Assembly (NCBI GenBank): GCA_041301185.1
Contig: JBFYSV010000347.1
Span: forward strand, 1,697-65,696
Origin: Anaerolineae bacterium
GTDB taxonomy: Bacteria > Chloroflexota > Anaerolineae > Anaerolineales > UBA4823
Direction of reading: 5' to 3'
DNA length: 64,000 bases
Shown here: positions 1,130 through 10,881 of the stretch, one piece after another
How positions within the stretch are numbered: the first letter of the stretch is position 1
How the letters are laid out: each line of letters begins with the position of its first letter
Made by a program: the position numbers and the translations under genes
The notes under the pieces: model-generated
Databases searched by the model: none
The model's input: only the letters and a program-made list of their open reading frames with translations
What the model was told of the DNA's origin: nothing

Positions 1130-2422
1130 TTATTGATCACTGTCATTATTGCTGGACCTATGGACTGAAACCAGTGTCAGGTCGTCTTCTTGCTCCCAAT
1201 CAGTACCGGTAAACTTGACCAGTGACGATAGGATATGGGAAACCAAATTCGTTTTCGGAATGGGTGATGTTAATATCTGCAACACTCTGGGAGTCCCTAG
1301 GATTTGTCCCTGGATGTCGTGGGCTTCTAACAGACCGTCGCTGAAAAGGACGACGATTTCCCCAGGTTCGATACAAGTCTCTTTATCTTCATAAATCATA
1401 CCGGGCAGGAGGCCGAGCGGCATACCTGTTGCTCGCAACTCAAGAGCCTTGGATGCGGTAACATGAATAGGCAGACAGTGACCGGCATTCGCAAATTGGA
1501 ACGATCCGTTCTCTGGATTCATCAGAGCCAGTATGCAGGTGACAAACATACCGGTGGGCATTTGTTGGCAAAGGAGGTCATTTGCCAGTGATAATGCTTC
1601 GCTAGGTGTGAGCCCTTGGTCCCCATCCATCCCAGCCATGATCGCGCGTAGAATAGAGCAAGTTGTTGCCATTACCAGGGCAGCTGGAATGCCTTTTCCG
1701 GTGGCATCCCCGATAATTATCCCGATCTTACCATCCTGAAATAGGATGTAATCGTAAAAATCACCGCCCACGGTGTGTGCCGGTTGCCAGTGGGCTGTAA
1801 TTTGCCAACCCGGTAGGGCAGGTGTCCCTTTAGGTAGGATACCCTGTTGGATCCTCTGAGCTAGCTCCAGTTCATGCTCGATTCGTTCCTTTTGAATTAA
1901 TTTCTCTTGTATCAATTTCAAGTTTTCATAAGCAATAACCAATTGCTGATTTTTTTCTTTTAACTCGGCAATAATTTCCTGTTCTGCATTGCTCCAGCGG
2001 ATTGTCATCTCCTTCATGACGTGATAACCCAGGTGGGGCTGCCGAAGAATAAGAGCTTCGAAATGGCTGTGGAGCATCTCTAAGAGCACCACTTCCGTTA
2101 TTGTTCGGGCGCTTGCATACCGTAAGCGGTTTGGAATAAGCAGACTCGACTCTCCAAAGATATCGACTGGCTTCAAGGACGACAGGCGGCGCTCCTCGTC
2201 TGTGCCCATTGATTTTACGATCTCGACTTCGCCCATGACCAGGATTGATAATCGATCTGCAATATCCCCTTCGTGAAACAGGACGGTTCCAGAGGGGAAA
2301 CGGCGAACCTGGAGTGTCTGAATAAGCGCTCCGATCTCCTCCTGGGGAAGATCTTTAATAAATGGCACCTGCTCTACCAACTGTTGAACAGTTACCTGTT
2401 CAATTTCCATCAAATCACCCAT
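1130..2422 (-). CDS. Cyclic-nucleotide-binding domain + coiled coil + PP2C/SpoIIE-type protein phosphatase
   Basis: 430 aa. N-terminal cNMP-binding pattern (FPSGTVLFHEGDIADRLSILVMGEVEI...FGESSLL), a central heptad-like segment, and C-terminal SpoIIE motifs (GGDFYDY, IGDATGKGIPAAL, NAGH, FSDGLLE). Confidence 0.85.
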   Translation of the reverse strand: MGDLMEIEQVTVQQLVEQVPFIKDLPQEEIGALIQTLQVRRFPSGTVLFHEGDIADRLSILVMGEVEIVKSMGTDEERRLSSLKPVDIFGESSLLIPNRLRYASARTITEVVLLEMLHSHFEALILRQPHLGYHVMKEMTIRWSNAEQEIIAELKEKNQQLVIAYENLKLIQEKLIQKERIEHELELAQRIQQGILPKGTPALPGWQITAHWQPAHTVGGDFYDYILFQDGKIGIIIGDATGKGIPAALVMATTCSILRAIMAGMDGDQGLTPSEALSLANDLLCQQMPTGMFVTCILALMNPENGSFQFANAGHCLPIHVTASKALELRATGMPLGLLPGMIYEDKETCIEPGEIVVLFSDGLLEAHDIQGQILGTPRVLQILTSPIPKTNLVSHILSSLVKFTGTDWEQEDDLTLVSVHRSSNNDSDQ

Positions 2423-2504
2423 GCGTCAATTATAGACTATAATAGTCTTATTTCCGGTGGAATATTTGGGGTGTCTGGAAATTACCGTGGTAGGGCGGTT
2501 CTGT

Positions 2505-2541
2505 GGGGGTGTTTTGCGGGCGAAGCCCGCAAAATACCCCC
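2505..2541. other. 17-bp stem / GAA-loop hairpin in the divergent phosphatase / methyltransferase intergenic region
   Basis: GGGGGTGTTTTGCGGGC-GAA-GCCCGCAAAATACCCCC (one G-T pair), followed by a second hairpin TGCCGTT-TGC-AACGGCA at 2547-2563. No U-tract on either strand. Confidence 0.6.
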
Positions 2542-2677
2542 ACATCTGCCGTTTGCAACGGCAAGTCCCAATGTCCCATATTTGGAATTACACAGTTGGT
2601 AGGAGGTCAGGTTTATCCCACAAAATGGTTTACAATTAGGTCAGGTTTTGCACACCAGATCGCTATTCAGGTATTGC

Positions 2678-3763
2678 ATGATGACCAGCACAGAGCTGCC
2701 CATCGACAAGATCATCATTGGGAATTGCATTGAAGTGCTTGAGGCCTTACCGCAGGGCTCGGTTGATTTGATCTTTGCTGATCCACCCTATAACCTGCAA
2801 TTAGAAAACGAGCTTTTCCGCCCTAATCGTACTCGGGTAAATGGGGTGGATGATCTCTGGGATAAGTTCAAAAGTTTTGAAGAGTATGATCGCTTTACCC
2901 GCGCCTGGCTTGAAGCCTGTCGGCGGGTATTAAAAGACACTGGCACTATCTGGGTGATAGGCACTTACCATAATATCTACCGGGTAGGTGCCATCCTGCA
3001 AGATTTGAGGTATTGGATCCTGAATGACGTGGTTTGGGTGAAGACAAACCCAATGCCAAATTTCAAGGGGGTGCGTTTTACGAATGCTCAGGAAACTCTA
3101 ATCTGGGCACAAAAACACCGCGGAGCACAATATACGTTTAACCACCACGCAGTCAAAGCCCTGAACGATGATTTGCAGATGCGCAGCGACTGGCATCTGC
3201 CGCTATGTACCGGGAAAGAGCGTATCAAAGTCAATGGCAGCAAAGCTCACGCAACCCAGAAACCGGAATCACTGCTTTACCGGGTGATCTTATCTAGCTC
3301 CAACCGAGACGATATAATTTTGGACCCCTTTTTTGGAACCGGGACCACCGGCGCGGTTGCCAAGAAGCTGAAACGACACTGGATCGGGATTGAAGAGCAC
3401 AAAGCTTATATTGATATTGCCCAGGAAAGAATTGATCATATCCAGGTGAACGACGATGAAGCGATAAATTTTGTTTTCGAGACCAAGCCGCGCCAGTCCA
3501 GGGTGCCTTTTGGGGCTCTCCTGGAGTATGGGTTATTGATGCCGGGGCAAGTCCTTTACTTTAATCAGCGCGAGGACTCGCCTGCAGTGATATTGTCCAG
3601 CGGTCACATCCGGTATCAGGAGATCACCGGATCGATACACCAGGTTGGCAGGACTATTTTGAACGCTCCGTGCAACGGCTGGCAGCACTGGTATTACCAG
3701 GATGTGTCCAGCGGGCAAATGGTGGTGATTGATCACTTGCGCCAGGGATTGGTAAGTGGATAA
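2678..3763 (+). CDS. Beta-class N6-adenine DNA methyltransferase, CcrM/M.HinfI family, with a CcrM-like C-terminal extension; no partner endonuclease seen
   Basis: Motif IV IFADPPYN precedes motif I LDPFFGTGTTG. NPMPNFKG and AHATQKPESLLYRVI are family signatures. The C-terminal RVPFGALLEYGLL...GSIHQVG...NGWQHWYY resembles the CcrM C-terminal domain. The ORF opens at TTG 2648, but ATG 2678/2681 is the likelier start. Confidence 0.9.
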   Translation: MMTSTELPIDKIIIGNCIEVLEALPQGSVDLIFADPPYNLQLENELFRPNRTRVNGVDDLWDKFKSFEEYDRFTRAWLEACRRVLKDTGTIWVIGTYHNIYRVGAILQDLRYWILNDVVWVKTNPMPNFKGVRFTNAQETLIWAQKHRGAQYTFNHHAVKALNDDLQMRSDWHLPLCTGKERIKVNGSKAHATQKPESLLYRVILSSSNRDDIILDPFFGTGTTGAVAKKLKRHWIGIEEHKAYIDIAQERIDHIQVNDDEAINFVFETKPRQSRVPFGALLEYGLLMPGQVLYFNQREDSPAVILSSGHIRYQEITGSIHQVGRTILNAPCNGWQHWYYQDVSSGQMVVIDHLRQGLVSG

Positions 3764-3799
3764 TTATTGCCGGAGCATCGGGATGGGAGGGATTGTTTT

Positions 3800-6700
3800 A
3801 TGGAATTGACTCTAACTATTAACCAGGCTGTGGCCCAAGTTGATGTATGTCCTGGAGAAAGCTTGTTACAGGTATTACGAGGCCTGGGTTATTTTGGAGT
3901 TAAACATGGTTGTGAAACGGGAGATTGTGGCGCTTGCACCGTACTGTTGGATGGAAAACCCGTCAATTCCTGCGTCTTTCTGGCAGCTCAAGCGGAGGGA
4001 CACACGATCGAGACCATTGAGTCGATCGGTCAGCATCCGGAACTGGGCTGGAAACCCAGCCAGGGATTACACCCCTTGCAACACGCATTTATCGACACGG
4101 GCGCGATCCAATGCGGCTTTTGTACACCCGCTCAGGTGTTGGTAGCAAAAGAATTGCTGGAGCGCAACCCATCACCCACCGAGAGCGAGGTGCGTGAAGC
4201 ATTATCGGGAGTCTTGTGCCGGTGCACCGGTTACCTTAAACCCGTCCAGGCGGTGCTGAGGGCAGCCGCCATCCTGAGGGGAGAAGATGTTGAACCCATC
4301 GGAAGAGCGGATACGGTCATTCCTGCTCCCAGCGAGTGGCTTTCTCCCAAAACAGCACTGGGTGGAGCGATTGGCGAGCCACCCGCTCCACTCGGTCCTG
4401 CTGAAGAAGTCTTGACCGGCATCCGGGTAATGCCGCAAATCCAGTCGACTCCCGAAACACAGCCTTATCAACGAGTGGGAAAGCCGGAAAGAAAGGTGGA
4501 TGCAGTTAAGCTGGTTCAAGGAAAGCCGGCTTTTGCGGCTGATTTCGAGCAGCGGGGTATGTTGGTTGCTAAGGTATTGCATAGCCCCGTGGCACACGCC
4601 CGGATCAAGCACATAGACACCACCCGGGCTACCCAGCTCCCCGGTGTTGCGGCTGTACTAACCTACAAGGATATCCCCCGGGTGATCTTCTCCACGGCAG
4701 GACAATCGGACCCGATCCCCGGCCCGCTGGATACGTTTTCTTTAGACGAGAAAGTTCGTTTCGTTGGTGACCGGGTGGCTTTTATAGCTGCAGAGACCGC
4801 AGCAATTGCCGAGCAGGCATTGAGCTTGATTGAAGTCGAATACGAAGCCCTGCCCGTTCTGCTTGATCCTGCGCAGGCAATGGAACCCGGTGCTCCCATC
4901 CTGCACGACGAAGCGGAGTACGTCAATTTTGCGGAATCAGATCCTACCCGCAACCTGGCAGCCAAGATCAGGATAGATATCGGAGATGTGGAAAAAGGCT
5001 TTGCCGAAGCAGATTATATTTTCGAAGATGAGTACGAAGTCCCGAAAGTCCAGCAAGCCCATATTGAGCCACACGTCGTTGTCACTTACTGGGACGAGGA
5101 TGATCGCCTTGTTATCCGCACCAGCACCCAGGTTCCTTTCCATGCGCGGAGAATATTGTCACCTGTCTTAAACTTACCGATCAAGCGTATCCGGGTGATC
5201 AAGCCTCGGATAGGTGGCGGCTTCGGAGGCAAACAAGAAATATTAATCGAGGATGTAGCCGCCCATCTGACGATCGCTACCGGACGTCCGGTAATTTTTG
5301 AGTACACCCGGGAAGAAGAGTTCGTTGCAGCTCGCTCGCGGCACCCCATGCGCATCCGGATGAAAACGGGTGTCAAGAAGGATGGCACGCTGACAGCCAA
5401 TGCTATGTATGCTCTGAGCGATACCGGGGCATATGGGTGCCATGCACTCACCGTGACCGGAAACACCGGGCACAAGGCAATGGCGTTGTATGTCGGTGAC
5501 GATCCTTACCGGGAGAAACCCAATATCCAATTTTATGCGGATATCGTCTACACCAACCATCCACCCGCCGGAGCCTATCGGGGATACGGTGTGCCGCAAG
5601 GGTATTGGCCGGTGGAACGGCATATGGAGAAAATTGTCCGCCAATTGGGCCTTGATCCGATCGAATTCCGCCTAAAAAATGCTCTGCGAGCAGGGGAGCA
5701 ACATCCATTCAGCACAGCCTGGAGTGAGGGGCGCGAGCCTCGCCCTGAGACTATTGAAACATGCGGCCTGGCGGAGTGCGCCCGCCAGGGTAAGGCAGCG
5801 ATTGGCTGGGATCAAAAGTACGCCAACCCCGCCTGGCATGAGATCCCTGGCAAGCCTCACCTGCGCAAAGGGATTGGGGTCGCCCTGGTGATGCAGGGCA
5901 CAGCAATTCCCTACCTGGATATGGGTGGTGCCAGCATAAAAATGAACGATGATGGTTCATTCAATTTGCTGGTGGGCGCAACCGATCTTGGGACGGGCTC
6001 AGACACCGTTCTGGCTCAGATGGCAGCCGAGGTGCTTGGCGTGCAGCTGGAAGACATGCTGACCTATTCCTCAGACACGGATTTCACTCCCTTTGATAAG
6101 GGAGCTTATGCTTCCAGCACGACGTATATCTCAGGGGCAGCGGTTGTTAAAGCTGCTGAGCAGGTAGCCGAACGCATCCGGATCAGAGCTGCGCGAATGC
6201 TGAACGAAGCGAATCAAGGTGTTGAAGTTACACCAGACGAGATCCACCTGGTAGACCGTAATGCGGTCAGCCCCGATGGTCGCACGGTGAGCCTGTCCGC
6301 GATTGCCCACAATGCACTGCACCATGTTGACCAGGAGCAAATCATGGCAGTGGCTTCGTATGTGTCGCCGGTTTCTCCGCCTCCTTTTGCAGCCCAGTTT
6401 GCCGAGGTAACCGTTGATAGCGAAACAGGGCAGGTGGTAGTAGACAAACTGGTGATGGCAGTGGACTCGGGTGTAATCGTCAACCCGATCACAGCCTCCG
6501 GGCAGGTGGAAGGCGGTATGGTGCAAGCGTTGGGGTACGCTGTATGCGAGGAGATGCGCTACGACGAGGAGGGACGTGCCCGTGAGCGGGATTTGCGAGA
6601 GTACCATATCTTCCGCTCGAACGAGATGCCTGAGCTAGAGACGATCTTCATCGAGACATTCGAGCCTTCGCATCCTTTCGGGGTAAAGGCAGTGGCAGAG

Positions 6701-6811
6701 ATTCCGATGGATGGTGTAGCCCCGGCGGTCGGAAACGCAATTCTGGATGCGTGTGGGGTCCAGGTGGATGATAATCCGGTCACCCCGGAGAAAATCTGGC
6801 GCGGCATGTAG
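3800..6811 (+). CDS. Fused [2Fe-2S] + molybdopterin-binding subunit of a molybdenum hydroxylase (XdhD / aldehyde oxidoreductase Mop-like architecture)
   Basis: N-terminus has GCETGDCGACTV and QCGFCTP...LCRCTGY (two 2Fe-2S sites). After a linker comes the Moco domain (GGGFGGK, AYRGYG, a MOSC-free large-subunit pattern). GGGAGGG lies upstream of ATG 3800; the ORF track starts at TTG 3767. Confidence 0.9.
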   Translation: MELTLTINQAVAQVDVCPGESLLQVLRGLGYFGVKHGCETGDCGACTVLLDGKPVNSCVFLAAQAEGHTIETIESIGQHPELGWKPSQGLHPLQHAFIDTGAIQCGFCTPAQVLVAKELLERNPSPTESEVREALSGVLCRCTGYLKPVQAVLRAAAILRGEDVEPIGRADTVIPAPSEWLSPKTALGGAIGEPPAPLGPAEEVLTGIRVMPQIQSTPETQPYQRVGKPERKVDAVKLVQGKPAFAADFEQRGMLVAKVLHSPVAHARIKHIDTTRATQLPGVAAVLTYKDIPRVIFSTAGQSDPIPGPLDTFSLDEKVRFVGDRVAFIAAETAAIAEQALSLIEVEYEALPVLLDPAQAMEPGAPILHDEAEYVNFAESDPTRNLAAKIRIDIGDVEKGFAEADYIFEDEYEVPKVQQAHIEPHVVVTYWDEDDRLVIRTSTQVPFHARRILSPVLNLPIKRIRVIKPRIGGGFGGKQEILIEDVAAHLTIATGRPVIFEYTREEEFVAARSRHPMRIRMKTGVKKDGTLTANAMYALSDTGAYGCHALTVTGNTGHKAMALYVGDDPYREKPNIQFYADIVYTNHPPAGAYRGYGVPQGYWPVERHMEKIVRQLGLDPIEFRLKNALRAGEQHPFSTAWSEGREPRPETIETCGLAECARQGKAAIGWDQKYANPAWHEIPGKPHLRKGIGVALVMQGTAIPYLDMGGASIKMNDDGSFNLLVGATDLGTGSDTVLAQMAAEVLGVQLEDMLTYSSDTDFTPFDKGAYASSTTYISGAAVVKAAEQVAERIRIRAARMLNEANQGVEVTPDEIHLVDRNAVSPDGRTVSLSAIAHNALHHVDQEQIMAVASYVSPVSPPPFAAQFAEVTVDSETGQVVVDKLVMAVDSGVIVNPITASGQVEGGMVQALGYAVCEEMRYDEEGRARERDLREYHIFRSNEMPELETIFIETFEPSHPFGVKAVAEIPMDGVAPAVGNAILDACGVQVDDNPVTPEKIWRGM

Positions 6812-6886
6812 CCGAAAAGGACCGGGTGGAACGAGCAGGTGCGTGAACTCGTATAGCATTCTTCGAGCAGGGAGTAGATTTATTTT

Positions 6887-8230
6887 ATGAGTGTGATCTA
6901 TGTAATCGGTCATGTCAATCCAGATACCGATTCTATTGCATCTGCGATGGGTTACGCCTGGTTGCTCCACGAGCGGGATCATGCGGATGTGGTGGCAGCC
7001 CGAGCCGGTCCTACCAACCCACAGACCACCTGGGTTTTGAAGCAGCTTGGATTGGAAGCACCTCTATTACTGAGCGATGCCTCGCCAATATTTGAATCAG
7101 TCACCCGTCGCTTAGATACAGTGCAACCGAGCGATCCGCTACGCGATGCCTGGGCGATCACCAGCCGCACGGAAGGTATTGCGCCTGTTGTGGAGGAGGA
7201 TGGAATTCCGTTCGGCCTGATTACAGGAGCCAGTTTGTTCAACCTGTTTGGAAAGCTGGTTGGACCACATCCCCGCCGGCAAGAGATGCGGATCAGCGAG
7301 ATCCTGGATCTGCCATGTAAAGACGCGACCGATACGAGTACGCCCCGCTTCCAGGTCAAGACCCGGATTCGAGATGTGATCAATCGCATCTTGCGGGATT
7401 TGCACAGCGATTTTCTGATTGTTGATGAAAACGGTTATTATGTCGGTGTGAGCCACCAGAGAGACGTGCTTAACCCGCCCAGATTGAAATTGATCCTGGT
7501 TGATCACAACGAGCCGAGTCAGGCGGTTGGTGCCCTGGATGAAGCCGAGCTGCTTGAAATTTTAGATCATCACCGCCTGGGTAACCCGACCACCCATATC
7601 CCAATCCGGTTTTCGGTAGACGTGGTCGGTAGCACCAGCACCCTGGTCTCTGCGCGAATCGAAGAGGCCGGTCTGAGCGCGCCGCCCGCCCTGGCAGGGA
7701 TGCTTTTAGCGGGTTTGCTCGCAGACACTTTAATCCTGTCTTCCCCGACAACAACAGAACGAGATCGAGTGGCTGCTGAGCGGCTGGGCCGCTGGGCTTT
7801 TGTCCGAAACGGTCCGCTGGCAGGAGAAACGGTGCAATCCTTTGGAAAGAAGGTGCTTGACTCCGGCGCAGGGCTGGCGACCCGTGATCCGCAGATGATT
7901 GTCACTTCTGACCTTAAGCTATATGAAGCAGGGGGGATGGAATTCGCCATTGCACAGGTTGAGGTAACCAGCCTGTTACAGTTGGATGAGCACCTGGAAC
8001 AGCTCAAGCAAGCCCTGGAGCAGCTCCAGCAATCGAGAGGCTTGAGCTTCTCTATGTTGATGGTAACCGACGTTGTCAGCGGCTCCAGCCGGTTATTGAT
8101 CTCCAATGAGCCGCCGGTGCTGGGAGGATTGCCTTACCCGCGCCAACCGGATGGAACCCGCCTGGCAGAAGGGGTGGTCTCACGCAAGAAACAACTTTTG
8201 CCCATCGTGTTGGGACTATTAGAGAGCTGA
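6887..8230 (+). CDS. CBS-domain family II (DHH/DHHA2) inorganic pyrophosphatase
   Basis: DHH motifs GHVNPDTDSIASA, VDHNE and LDHHRLG. A roughly 120-aa insert with CBS-like sequence sits between motifs II and III. A DHHA2-like C-terminus is present. Confidence 0.8.
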   Translation: MSVIYVIGHVNPDTDSIASAMGYAWLLHERDHADVVAARAGPTNPQTTWVLKQLGLEAPLLLSDASPIFESVTRRLDTVQPSDPLRDAWAITSRTEGIAPVVEEDGIPFGLITGASLFNLFGKLVGPHPRRQEMRISEILDLPCKDATDTSTPRFQVKTRIRDVINRILRDLHSDFLIVDENGYYVGVSHQRDVLNPPRLKLILVDHNEPSQAVGALDEAELLEILDHHRLGNPTTHIPIRFSVDVVGSTSTLVSARIEEAGLSAPPALAGMLLAGLLADTLILSSPTTTERDRVAAERLGRWAFVRNGPLAGETVQSFGKKVLDSGAGLATRDPQMIVTSDLKLYEAGGMEFAIAQVEVTSLLQLDEHLEQLKQALEQLQQSRGLSFSMLMVTDVVSGSSRLLISNEPPVLGGLPYPRQPDGTRLAEGVVSRKKQLLPIVLGLLES

Positions 8231-8234
8231 GGTC

Positions 8235-9026
8235 ATGATATACCAGGCGATTGTGGATCTGCAAAATGAAAATGAAGCTGGGGCGTTGTGTACTGTCATT
8301 CGCGCCAGGGGATCCACGCCGCGCGGTGCCGCCTCGAAGATGCTGGTGTATGCGGATGGAAGTGCCCTGGGGACGATTGGTGGCGGGGAGATGGAAAGCC
8401 GGGTGGTAAGCGAGGCTTTGCAGGCAATTCAAGACGGGACGCCGCGCATCCTTGAATACAGTATGGTTGAACCAGGTCGAGGTGATCCGGGTGTGTGTGG
8501 CGGACAACTGGAGGTGTATGTGGAGCCAATCTTGCCTAAACCGGTGGTAGTGATTGTGGGATGCGGGCACGTGGGGAAAGCTGTTGCTCATCTGGCAAAA
8601 TGGCTCGGTTTCCGCGTGCTTGCCAGTGACGACCGACCTGAATTTTGCACTCCTGAGGCGATCCCGGATGCAGACCAATACATCCCGGTATTGATGCAAG
8701 AGTTACCAGAAATGATAAAGGTCAGACCCTGGATGTATTTTGTCTTAACTACCCGAGGTGTGGATATCGATGTGCCCGGGCTGACTGTCTTGCTGGAGAA
8801 AGAGGTGGCTTACATAGGGGTAATCGGCTCGCGGCGCAGGTGGGAGACTACGCGTAAAAAATTGACCGATGCTGGTTTTGCCGACGAAATACTGGACAGG
8901 GTACGCTCGCCGATCGGTTTAGACCTGGGTGGAGAAACCCCGGAAGAAATTGCTCTGAGCATTATGGCTGAGATCCTCCTTTTGCGCCAGAGAAGGACAG
9001 CAAATATATCCAACTCGGCAGGTTGA
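8235..9026 (+). CDS. xdhC: XdhC/CoxI-family molybdenum cofactor insertion chaperone
   Basis: ALCTVIRARGSTPRGAASKMLV...GTIGGGEMES (XdhC N-domain), then a Rossmann-like segment VVVIVGCGHVGKAVA. The start is 4 nt after the previous stop. Confidence 0.85.
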   Translation: MIYQAIVDLQNENEAGALCTVIRARGSTPRGAASKMLVYADGSALGTIGGGEMESRVVSEALQAIQDGTPRILEYSMVEPGRGDPGVCGGQLEVYVEPILPKPVVVIVGCGHVGKAVAHLAKWLGFRVLASDDRPEFCTPEAIPDADQYIPVLMQELPEMIKVRPWMYFVLTTRGVDIDVPGLTVLLEKEVAYIGVIGSRRRWETTRKKLTDAGFADEILDRVRSPIGLDLGGETPEEIALSIMAEILLLRQRRTANISNSAG

Positions 9027-9050: not shown

Positions 9051-10508
9051 ATGTGGACTGAATATATCAACGCTAGCAGTACCTATGAAGTATTACAAAT
9101 CTTGGATGAGCGCCGGGAACGCGCCCGTATTGTAGCTGGTGGGACTGATCTGATCCTGGAGATGGAGCGCGGGGTGCGCAAGGGGATTGACACCCTGGTA
9201 GATGTGACCCGCATCCCTGGTCTGGATCAAATTATTCTGGATGAAGACGAGCATATTCACCTGGGTCCGATGGTGACGCACAATCATTGCGTAGCATCCA
9301 GGCTGGTCGTCGAGCGGGCTTTCCCTCTGGCGCGGGCAGCCTGGGAGGTAGGCGCCCCGCAAATTCGCAACCGGGGTACGGTAGCCGGTAACCTGATTAC
9401 TGCTTCACCCGCTAATGACACGATCACCCCCCTGGTGGCGATGGGTGCCTGGGTGACGTTGGCCTCCCGGGCTGGTAAGCGGAATGTGCCTCTGGACCAG
9501 TTCTATACTGGGGTGCGTGGCACGGTTATGCGTCCAGACGAGATGCTGGTGGATATTGTCTTTCCAGCGATGGCTCAAGACGCCCGCGGCACCTTCATCA
9601 AGCTTGGCTTGCGCCGGGCGCAGGCGATTTCGCTCGTAAATGCGGCGATTGTTCTCTCCATTCAAGATGGGCGAGTGGGCAAGGCTTCTATCACCTTGGG
9701 ATCAGTCGCTCCAACGATTATTCATGCCAGCCAGGCAGAGGATTATCTGGTTGGCAGGACATTGGATGATGCCACGACCCAGACTGCGGCGACGTTGGCG
9801 GAGCAAGTTGCCCGGCCTATCACTGACGTGCGCAGTCCGGCAGACTATCGGAGCGAAATGGTGCGGGTATGTACGCTGCGCGGCTTGCAAAGCATTTGCA
9901 ATGGCGATGAGCGGGGGGATTTTCCAGCTCATCCAGTTTTGCTGAGGGGGCGAGATGCGCGGGAGAAAGCCTTGTCTTTGGATAAGAGCAGCATTCACCA
10001 ACCGGGGACGCCAATTGTCACCCGGATTAATGGCAAAAAGTACTCGTTTTCCAGCGGTCAAGAGAAAACCCTGCTGCGCTTGCTGCGCGAGGAAGCAGGA
10101 CTTACTGGTACAAAAGAGGGATGCGCAGAAGGCGAATGTGGCGCTTGTACCGTCTTTCTGGATGGTGTAGCAGTGATGAGCTGCCTGGTTCCTGCTCCGA
10201 GGGCGCACGGAGCGGAAATTGTCACGGTTGAGGGGCTGGCGCATGAAGGCGTTCTTCACCCTGTGCAGCAAGCCTTTATCGATGAAGGGGCGGTGCAATG
10301 CGGTTACTGCACCCCCGGCTTTTTGATGTCGGCAGCCATGTTGCTGGAGGAGAAGGTCGATCCGAATCTGGAGGAAATTCGCCAGGCTATCACGGGTAAT
10401 TTGTGCCGGTGCACTGGATATTACAGCATCGTATCTGCCATAGAAAAAGCGGCGCTGGAGTTGAGGAAAAGCCAGGCCGGTAGGGAGGTGAGCCATGTCG
10501 AAATATGA
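9051..10508 (+). CDS. Fused FAD-binding (CoxM-like, N-terminal) + [2Fe-2S] (CoxS-like, C-terminal) subunit of a molybdenum hydroxylase
   Basis: aa 1-290 carry the FAD_binding_5/CO_deh_flav_C pattern (IVAGGTDL, RNRGTVAGNL). aa from about 321 carry GCAEGECGACTV, VQCGYCTPG and NLCRCTGY. Confidence 0.9.
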   Translation: MWTEYINASSTYEVLQILDERRERARIVAGGTDLILEMERGVRKGIDTLVDVTRIPGLDQIILDEDEHIHLGPMVTHNHCVASRLVVERAFPLARAAWEVGAPQIRNRGTVAGNLITASPANDTITPLVAMGAWVTLASRAGKRNVPLDQFYTGVRGTVMRPDEMLVDIVFPAMAQDARGTFIKLGLRRAQAISLVNAAIVLSIQDGRVGKASITLGSVAPTIIHASQAEDYLVGRTLDDATTQTAATLAEQVARPITDVRSPADYRSEMVRVCTLRGLQSICNGDERGDFPAHPVLLRGRDAREKALSLDKSSIHQPGTPIVTRINGKKYSFSSGQEKTLLRLLREEAGLTGTKEGCAEGECGACTVFLDGVAVMSCLVPAPRAHGAEIVTVEGLAHEGVLHPVQQAFIDEGAVQCGYCTPGFLMSAAMLLEEKVDPNLEEIRQAITGNLCRCTGYYSIVSAIEKAALELRKSQAGREVSHVEI

Positions 10509-10881
10509 TAAGTTCAATAAAGGAAGCCGAATGCAGGAACGCCCGTGGAAAATCCACCCGATCTGGAGAGGGATCGGCTGCTTGTTGATGATCCTGATCC
10601 CGATTATGGCGTATGCTGGGGCGGTAGTACTTGTGCAGGCTAATCTGGAGCAAGGGTGGCTGCCAATGCCGCGGGAATTGATCCAGACTGTTGCGCTACC
10701 ATTCGTGGGGGAAGTCAAACAATTTTATGCAGTGGTCATTATGACGGCATTGTTAATGATCATCGGGTTTGGTGTGGTAACAATTCTCTACTCGCTGATC
10801 TACAGCGCAGTCGGACCGCCACGCCTGGGACCGCTGGACGCGCCTCCCGTACGGCGTTCGCCATCAAAGAAAAAATATTAA
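10495..10881 (+). CDS. Small two-TM membrane protein, unknown function, translationally coupled to the FAD/FeS subunit
   Basis: A strong GGGAGGTGA sits 4 nt upstream of the ATG. The gene overlaps the upstream stop by 14 nt. It has two hydrophobic helices (GIGCLLMILIPIMAYAGAVVLV, FYAVVIMTALLMIIGFGVVTILYSLIY) and a basic tail. Confidence 0.55.
   Translation: MSKYDKFNKGSRMQERPWKIHPIWRGIGCLLMILIPIMAYAGAVVLVQANLEQGWLPMPRELIQTVALPFVGEVKQFYAVVIMTALLMIIGFGVVTILYSLIYSAVGPPRLGPLDAPPVRRSPSKKKY

Follow-up and report, generated by a model that had tools for sequence, protein, structure and literature searches.

The window analysed here is a stretch of 64,000 nucleotides from an Anaerolineae bacterium (Chloroflexota; assembly GCA_041301185.1, contig JBFYSV010000347.1), and near its beginning lies a gene for a predicted DNA adenine methyltransferase of the CcrM/M.HinfI family, which we call the methylase. 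According to the list of open reading frames (ORFs) and their translations, a frame on the plus strand stays open for 371 codons from a TTG at 2648 to 3763. The preliminary description took that whole frame as the gene; the frame is real, but its 5' end is 30-33 nt too long, and when the sequence before the gene is aligned with that of L083 and L085, two metagenomic relatives, the start that is kept in relatives falls on a pair of ATG codons at 2678 and 2681. The coding sequence is accordingly drawn at 2678-3763 (plus strand) and yields a protein of about 360 amino acids. Its assignment as a beta-class N6-adenine DNA methyltransferase draws on the ORF, on Pfam and NCBIfam models, on the structure of Caulobacter CcrM (PDB 6PBD) and on the start shared with L083 and L085. 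Four such close relatives were available in all: L083 and L084 encode a methylase with 81% identity to that of the window, and L085 and L086 one with 73%.

The protein has two domains. The catalytic N6_N4_Mtase domain (PF01555; 2762-3427, plus strand, residues 39-260 of the 371-aa ORF) is matched over profile positions 1-221 of 221 with an E-value of 1.5e-65 and 221.7 bits against a cut-off of 26.7, and the C-terminal RAMA domain (PF18755; 3479-3748, plus strand, residues 278-367) is matched with an E-value of 1.6e-10 and 41.3 bits against a cut-off of 35.2. As had been claimed from the translation, DPPY (motif IV; residues 35-38 from ATG 2678) stands N-terminal to FGTGTTG (motif I), which is the beta-class order, and the claimed collinearity with Caulobacter CcrM extends over the full length: the alignment to 6PBD runs end to end (residues 10-355, E 8e-128), with 56% identity over the whole protein, 64% within the core and 36% within the C-terminal domain. 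The NCBIfam model NF050803, ‘adenine-specific DNA-methyltransferase CcrM’, is matched at positions 2-348 of 350 with 539.2 bits. We regard the gene as encoding a predicted intact beta-class N6-adenine DNA methyltransferase of the CcrM/M.HinfI family, whose RAMA domain is the predicted equivalent of the 83-residue segment with which CcrM binds the non-target strand.

The roles of individual CcrM residues are known from structural and kinetic papers (PMC13092597, PMC7672430). The DPPY tetrad (31-34) is the catalytic motif, the G of the target is read by R44 and the T by W109 and R129, N124 stacks against the C, F125 holds the opened strands apart, and R179, K187 and K193 are also named as residues that matter; in the C-terminal domain S315, H317, N330, W332 and R350 touch the non-target strand, while a pocket formed by Gly39 and Gly40 accommodates the N base. 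We compared 22 catalytic, base-contact and phosphate-contact residues besides G39 and G40 in the window protein and in 54 Chloroflexota sequences, and all 22 are the same as in CcrM, in the window protein and in nearly all of the 54. They include D31, P32, P33, Y34, R44, W109, N124, F125, R129, R179, K187 and K193 (CcrM numbering) in the window protein, and the five C-terminal residues both there and in all 54 of the Chloroflexota set. Because the contact residues are shared with CcrM so widely, a strand-separation mechanism and a GANTC-type target are well supported for the window methylase by inference from these positions.

Homologues of this protein number in the thousands, and the best named matches are from Anaerolineae or Chloroflexi at 66-73% identity. 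A scan with one genome per species returned 592 relatives, and among the best 80, whose loci carry the other L-numbers used here, 51 belong to the Chloroflexota (57-68% identity) and 25 to the Pseudomonadota, nearly all of them Alphaproteobacteria (54-62% identity). A maximum-likelihood tree with DpnA-like methylases as the outgroup contains one Chloroflexota clade (SH-aLRT 92), apart from the alphaproteobacterial clade that holds Caulobacter CcrM, and the window protein sits well inside the former, which consists mostly of Anaerolineae. The nearness of these relatives, together with a gene order shared with them, supports the Chloroflexota origin that had been proposed for this DNA, and more narrowly one in the Anaerolineae. 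The methylase has a dN/dS, the ratio of nonsynonymous to synonymous substitution, of 0.06 against the 81%-identical relative. We therefore consider it most likely that Anaerolineae genomes have long carried this gene and passed it on vertically. Because its sampling favours near matches and its outgroup branch is long, the tree does not fix the direction in which an ancient transfer between phyla, if there was one, would have gone. A few members of the Anaerolineae-dominated clade carry other labels, namely L063 (Chthonomonadales), L065 (Draconibacterium, on a 2.1-kb contig), L033 (Dehalococcoidia) and L001 (Caldilineaceae), and these may be errors in the binning or labelling of metagenome-assembled genomes or occasional transfers.

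As far as the 64-kb window shows, the methylase is an orphan, as was first suggested. The adjacent genes encode a PP2C phosphatase and an XdhD-like protein, neither of them an endonuclease by Pfam, and no restriction-enzyme model matched the neighbours or the other 46 ORFs of the window. The preliminary description had also treated the C-terminal extension as a mark of cell-cycle CcrM that plain M.HinfI-type enzymes do not have, and this part does not hold. M.HinfI, the methylase of a type II restriction-modification (R-M) system of Haemophilus influenzae with the target GANTC, belongs to the same family, carries the same C-terminal segment as CcrM and is reported to show the same strand-separation behaviour (PMC7672430). 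Chloroflexota homologues that are linked to a restriction endonuclease in the same manner as M.HinfI also have the extension, with L042 and L045 full length including the C-terminal domain. Since both M.HinfI and these R-M-linked homologues carry it, the extension does not set cell-cycle CcrM apart. The window methylase differs from M.HinfI in having no endonuclease gene next to it and in occupying a conserved locus among housekeeping genes.

The regulation of the gene also differs from the alphaproteobacterial pattern. We counted GANTC sites in the 150 nt upstream of the methylase at 54 Chloroflexota loci and at 24 Pseudomonadota loci, 23 of which are alphaproteobacterial. The Pseudomonadota ccrM loci hold 82 sites, or 22.8 per kb, about 11 times background, whereas the Chloroflexota loci hold 26, or 3.2 per kb against a background of 2.7, and the window methylase has none in this interval. 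In L083 and L085 a single GAGTC lies in the conserved upstream block, and in the window it is mutated. Over 300 nt upstream, no CtrA-box-like site (TTAA-N7-TTAA, even when relaxed) was found at any of the 54 Chloroflexota loci, a weak test since only 3 of the 24 alphaproteobacterial loci matched either. As a separate observation, in the alphaproteobacterial loci within L046-L080, GANTC clusters of 3-9, often about 10 nt apart, precede nearly every ccrM sampled (300 nt). Because the GANTC-rich upstream region is missing, autoregulation of the alphaproteobacterial style is evidently not present for the window methylase.

Taken together, we propose that the gene is a solitary (orphan) CcrM/M.HinfI-family DNA N6-adenine methyltransferase, an old vertical resident of Anaerolineae genomes without alphaproteobacterial-style regulation, and we put the probability of this at roughly 0.85. 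The comparison with Caulobacter CcrM illustrates both sides of the proposal. The two proteins share their length and a two-domain architecture (a beta-class core and an 83-residue C-terminal domain), both are orphans, in our case in the local context, and in both cases the depletion of GANTC affects coding DNA and spares intergenic DNA. Unlike CcrM, the window methylase falls in a separate Chloroflexota clade, has both glycines of the N-base pocket replaced, scores below the equivalog cut-off, and lacks an upstream GANTC cluster as well as a CtrA-box-like site. We hypothesize that the enzyme would act as a dimer, as CcrM does, and that during methylation of the adenine the second subunit would grip the non-target strand with its C-terminal RAMA domain. 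This mechanism draws on the conserved residues and on methylomes published for related organisms.

Several observations weigh against this proposal. The NF050803 score of 539.2 bits lies under the curated Caulobacter equivalog cut-off of 830, so the methylase is a CcrM family member and not an equivalog. Gly39 and Gly40, which form the N-base pocket in CcrM, are Glu and Asn in the window protein, and a residue other than Gly at position 40 went together with GAWTC specificity in marine Alphaproteobacteria (PMC8919816). The depletion of GANTC in the window is modest, and a maximal-order Markov model finds it in GAWTC only. Finally, the same Chloroflexota clade also has members that are genuine R-M partners.

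Two of these points bear on the target. A narrower motif, GAWTC or GADTC in place of all GANTC, would be compatible with an orphan, vertically inherited methylase, and the exact motif remains uncertain because of the Glu and Asn at the two pocket positions and the published link of position 40 to GAWTC. The footprint in the window gives mixed testimony. Under a first-order Markov model the observed/expected ratio of GANTC is 0.57 in coding and 1.11 in intergenic DNA, the same direction as at the alphaproteobacterial loci (0.41 and 1.11) but weaker. The maximal-order model ranks GAWTC as the second most depleted of 512 pentamer pairs in the window (observed/expected 0.64, z -5.9), while GASTC is not depleted (0.94), which favours the narrower motif. 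However, the first-order model depletes GAWTC and GASTC alike in coding DNA (0.55 and 0.61), and the maximal-order table shows depletion of the four GANCC pentamers too, a hint that codon context is at work. The pooled Chloroflexota loci show little difference between the W and S classes. At position 40 most sequences of the clade have Gln or Asn, and 4 of 54 have Gly. From the literature, a D49G mutant kept its specificity unchanged (PMC8919816), and Anaerolineae of the CL500-11 group, whatever residue their enzyme has at position 40, methylate 98.7% of all GANTC sites (PMC6329791). Since the two background models disagree, we leave a GAWTC-only specificity as a weak lead, and we consider a narrowed target unlikely.

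The position of the methylase among its neighbours is informative about its history. Upstream on the plus strand is a FAD_binding_5 gene resembling a medium subunit (267-1034; Pfam and synteny), the ancestral upstream neighbour of the methylase, and between the two, on the minus strand, is a gene for a cNMP-binding SpoIIE/PP2C phosphatase (1130-2422; Pfam), the divergent neighbour that was originally described. Downstream, all on the plus strand, follow genes for an XdhD-like Fe-S/Mo subunit (3800-6811), a CBS-DHH pyrophosphatase (6887-8230), XdhC (8235-9026) and a fused FAD/Fe-S subunit (9051-10508), each assigned by Pfam and NCBIfam, and then a 128-aa ORF (10495-10881) known from the ORF list and from the same order in L083-L086. 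In those four relatives the array reads F420-biosynthesis genes, 4HBT thioesterase, FAD_binding_5, an optional PP2C gene on the minus strand, methylase and XdhD-like gene, and continues with the CBS-DHH pyrophosphatase, XdhC, the FAD/Fe-S subunit, the 128-aa ORF and RsmF (minus strand). Seven further Anaerolineae with 60-66% methylase identity (L010, L013, L014, L015, L022, L023 and L030) retain the order of FAD subunit, methylase and XdhD-like gene. The FAD-subunit gene immediately precedes the methylase in L022 and L030, with gaps of 22 nt and 25 nt respectively, and is found farther upstream in L010, L013, L015 and L023, and in other syntenic loci an M16C peptidase, an AbiEii toxin or a phosphodiesterase is inserted on one side of the methylase or the other. 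The wider neighbourhood, window 3-20607 and its counterparts in L083-L086, is conserved as well; it contains F420 genes (CofC, CofD and F420 ligase, in the relatives), the CBS-DHH pyrophosphatase and XdhC, and two sets of molybdenum-hydroxylase subunits, to which belong the XdhD-like gene, the FAD/Fe-S fusion and, by a tally of Pfam matches among the ORFs from 12541 on, another MoCoBD subunit.

The window and the 73%-identical relatives L085 and L086 have the PP2C gene, yet it is missing from the 81%-identical L083 and L084, which have a 76-aa ORF at that spot, and from every one of the 80 species-level loci. This distribution indicates a later insertion, particular to its lineage, that separated the methylase from the FAD-subunit gene. 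Because the order from FAD subunit through methylase to XdhD-like gene is kept while the flanking inserts vary, the methylase is a long-term resident of this interval and a ‘first gene’ only by virtue of the PP2C insertion. The preliminary description had made it the first gene of a molybdenum-hydroxylase operon. It is indeed co-oriented and tightly spaced with those genes, with the claimed 36 nt between its stop, which ends at 3763, and the XdhD-like ATG at 3800, and with the short gaps of 75, 4, 24 and -14 nt that continue downstream of the XdhD-like gene up to 10881. However, its leading place is a local accident, and in relatives without the PP2C gene it is internal.

On the upstream side, a three-way alignment with L083 and L085 finds only one well-conserved part of the intergenic region, a block of about 60 nt at 2617-2677 (plus strand) that contains TACAAT at 2631-2636. 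We infer that this block is a candidate promoter and 5' leader belonging to the methylase itself, with TACAAT as a putative -10 element, so that transcription would probably begin from a promoter about 45 nt upstream; a scan for sigma-70 sites and terminators found none near the start or the end of the methylase beyond the chance rate. Overlapping the block is a direct repeat, AGGTCAGGTTT, with two copies 34 nt apart (window 2604-2660), and in the relatives the second copy reads GAGTCTGGTT, with a GANTC site. Between the PP2C gene and the methylase there are also tandem hairpins at 2502-2563 (strand unassigned), a 20-bp stem with a GAA loop followed by a 7-bp stem, recognised as an inverted repeat with 95% complementarity (-48.6 kcal/mol, z -7.7) that has no U-tract and occurs as a single copy in the window. 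Their candidacy as a regulatory element of the methylase is unsupported, as they are missing from L083 and L085. A search of 2300-4000 against Rfam returned chance-level matches only.

On the downstream side, the 36-nt spacer between methylase and XdhD-like gene (3764-3799, plus strand) carries a Shine-Dalgarno-like GGGAGGG at 3785-3791. Read-through from the methylase into the XdhD-like gene is plausible, because the scan found no terminator-like site in 3764-3799, the predicted fold of 3740-3830 is no more stable than that of shuffled sequence (z +0.58), and the junction is equally tight in close relatives. Transcription starting at the methylase would probably continue into the XdhD-like gene. 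One may combine these threads into a broader picture in which the CcrM-type enzymes of Anaerolineae are an ancient vertical orphan lineage that sets a class-wide epigenetic mark under non-alphaproteobacterial control, with the target narrowed to GAWTC in this organism and a read-through tie to the molybdenum cluster; we regard that combination as a whole as quite unlikely.

It is a further step to suppose a functional coupling between the methylase and the molybdenum-hydroxylase genes, either within one operon in which the level of the methylase tracks a metabolic state or through control of the cluster by methylation. The terminator-free junction with the XdhD-like gene is tight in the window, L083, L085, L023 and L015, and the association holds down to about 60% identity, as coupling would predict. 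Yet across the wider Chloroflexota clade the neighbours of the methylase are unrelated (140 Pfam families among 98 neighbours), and so the association with molybdenum enzymes is synteny in one lineage and not a property of the family. Variable genes (the M16C peptidase, AbiEii, the phosphodiesterase and PP2C) have been inserted on either flank of the methylase, and the lone GANTC near the XdhD-like start, at 3808, is not kept in relatives. We also know of no biochemical link between the methylase and the molybdenum-hydroxylase genes, which we count against coupling. Functional coupling is very unlikely on this evidence, and the link to redox genes would be one of shared gene order in a single lineage rather than of demonstrated function.

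The same clade provides the case for an R-M role of the window methylase, in which it would be the modification half of a HinfI-like type II system with its endonuclease elsewhere in the genome. In L042 (8085-8885), L045 (3454-4281) and L065 (1451-2116) a full-length type II restriction endonuclease (REase_II, PADLOC PDLC03491) overlaps the stop of the methylase, L054 retains a 74-residue remnant of that endonuclease (8088-8303), and L001 has a fragment of a different one (6550-6882); these states look like a series from R-M pair to orphan. Against this, no endonuclease model matched anywhere in the 64 kb, and a tblastn search with the endonucleases of L042 and L045 found no match in the window or in its syntenic relatives. 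Moreover, relatives with as little as about 60% identity keep the locus stably placed among housekeeping genes. It is uncommon for a type II system to have its cognate endonuclease unlinked, which counts further against a hidden partner. We therefore judge this explanation highly improbable, and prefer to see the methylase of the window as an orphan.

The preliminary description had raised horizontal acquisition. A recent one, with Alphaproteobacteria or a mobile element as the source, is extremely improbable: the 56-60% identity to alphaproteobacterial CcrM, a total GC of 0.495 (1.4 standard deviations under the mean of the window's genes) and the variable presence of the adjoining PP2C gene could be cited for it, but the methylase is neither alone in its phylum nor recent there, lying inside the Chloroflexota clade and not the alphaproteobacterial one, at a position that is syntenic in many relatives, with GC at third codon positions (GC3) of 0.583 against a window mean of 0.573, without an integrase or transposase adjoining it (Pfam on the neighbours) and without a full-length homologue in the phage collection. 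Low GC was considered as a sign of foreign origin and rejected because GC3 is at the window mean. Matches on plasmids are alphaproteobacterial chromids or DpnA-like R-M methylases without the C-terminal domain, the latter being the outgroup of the tree.

CcrM-type genes and GANTC methylation in the Chloroflexota, for which an undescribed regulatory role had been suggested, have precedents in print. Among the CcrM homologues that bear a C-terminal domain, Gonzalez et al. (2014; PMC3973325) placed ‘some Chloroflexi’, and they remarked on sporadic CcrM clades outside the Alphaproteobacteria. Hiraoka et al. (2019; PMC6329791) measured N6-methyladenine at 93-99% of GANTC sites in genomes of CL500-11 Anaerolineae with an orphan methylase of the GANTC type. 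The CL500-11 enzymes (EMGBS3_04270 and its BD1 counterpart) are the closest published functional precedent for ours; by their published description they are of the same class, orphan and GANTC-type by homology. With Chloroflexi homologues on record since 2014 and GANTC methylation measured in Anaerolineae by 2019, the present gene carries little weight as a discovery, and the finding is a correct annotation of an ordinary kind.

Its value lies in what it says about the family. The C-terminal extension marks the whole CcrM/M.HinfI family, R-M partners included, which corrects a recurring assumption. The upstream GANTC cluster offers a simple sequence test that separates alphaproteobacterial ccrM from the Chloroflexota clade. 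That clade, in which orphans in housekeeping loci stand beside live R-M pairs and decaying endonuclease remnants, is a reasonable system for studying how orphan methylases originate.

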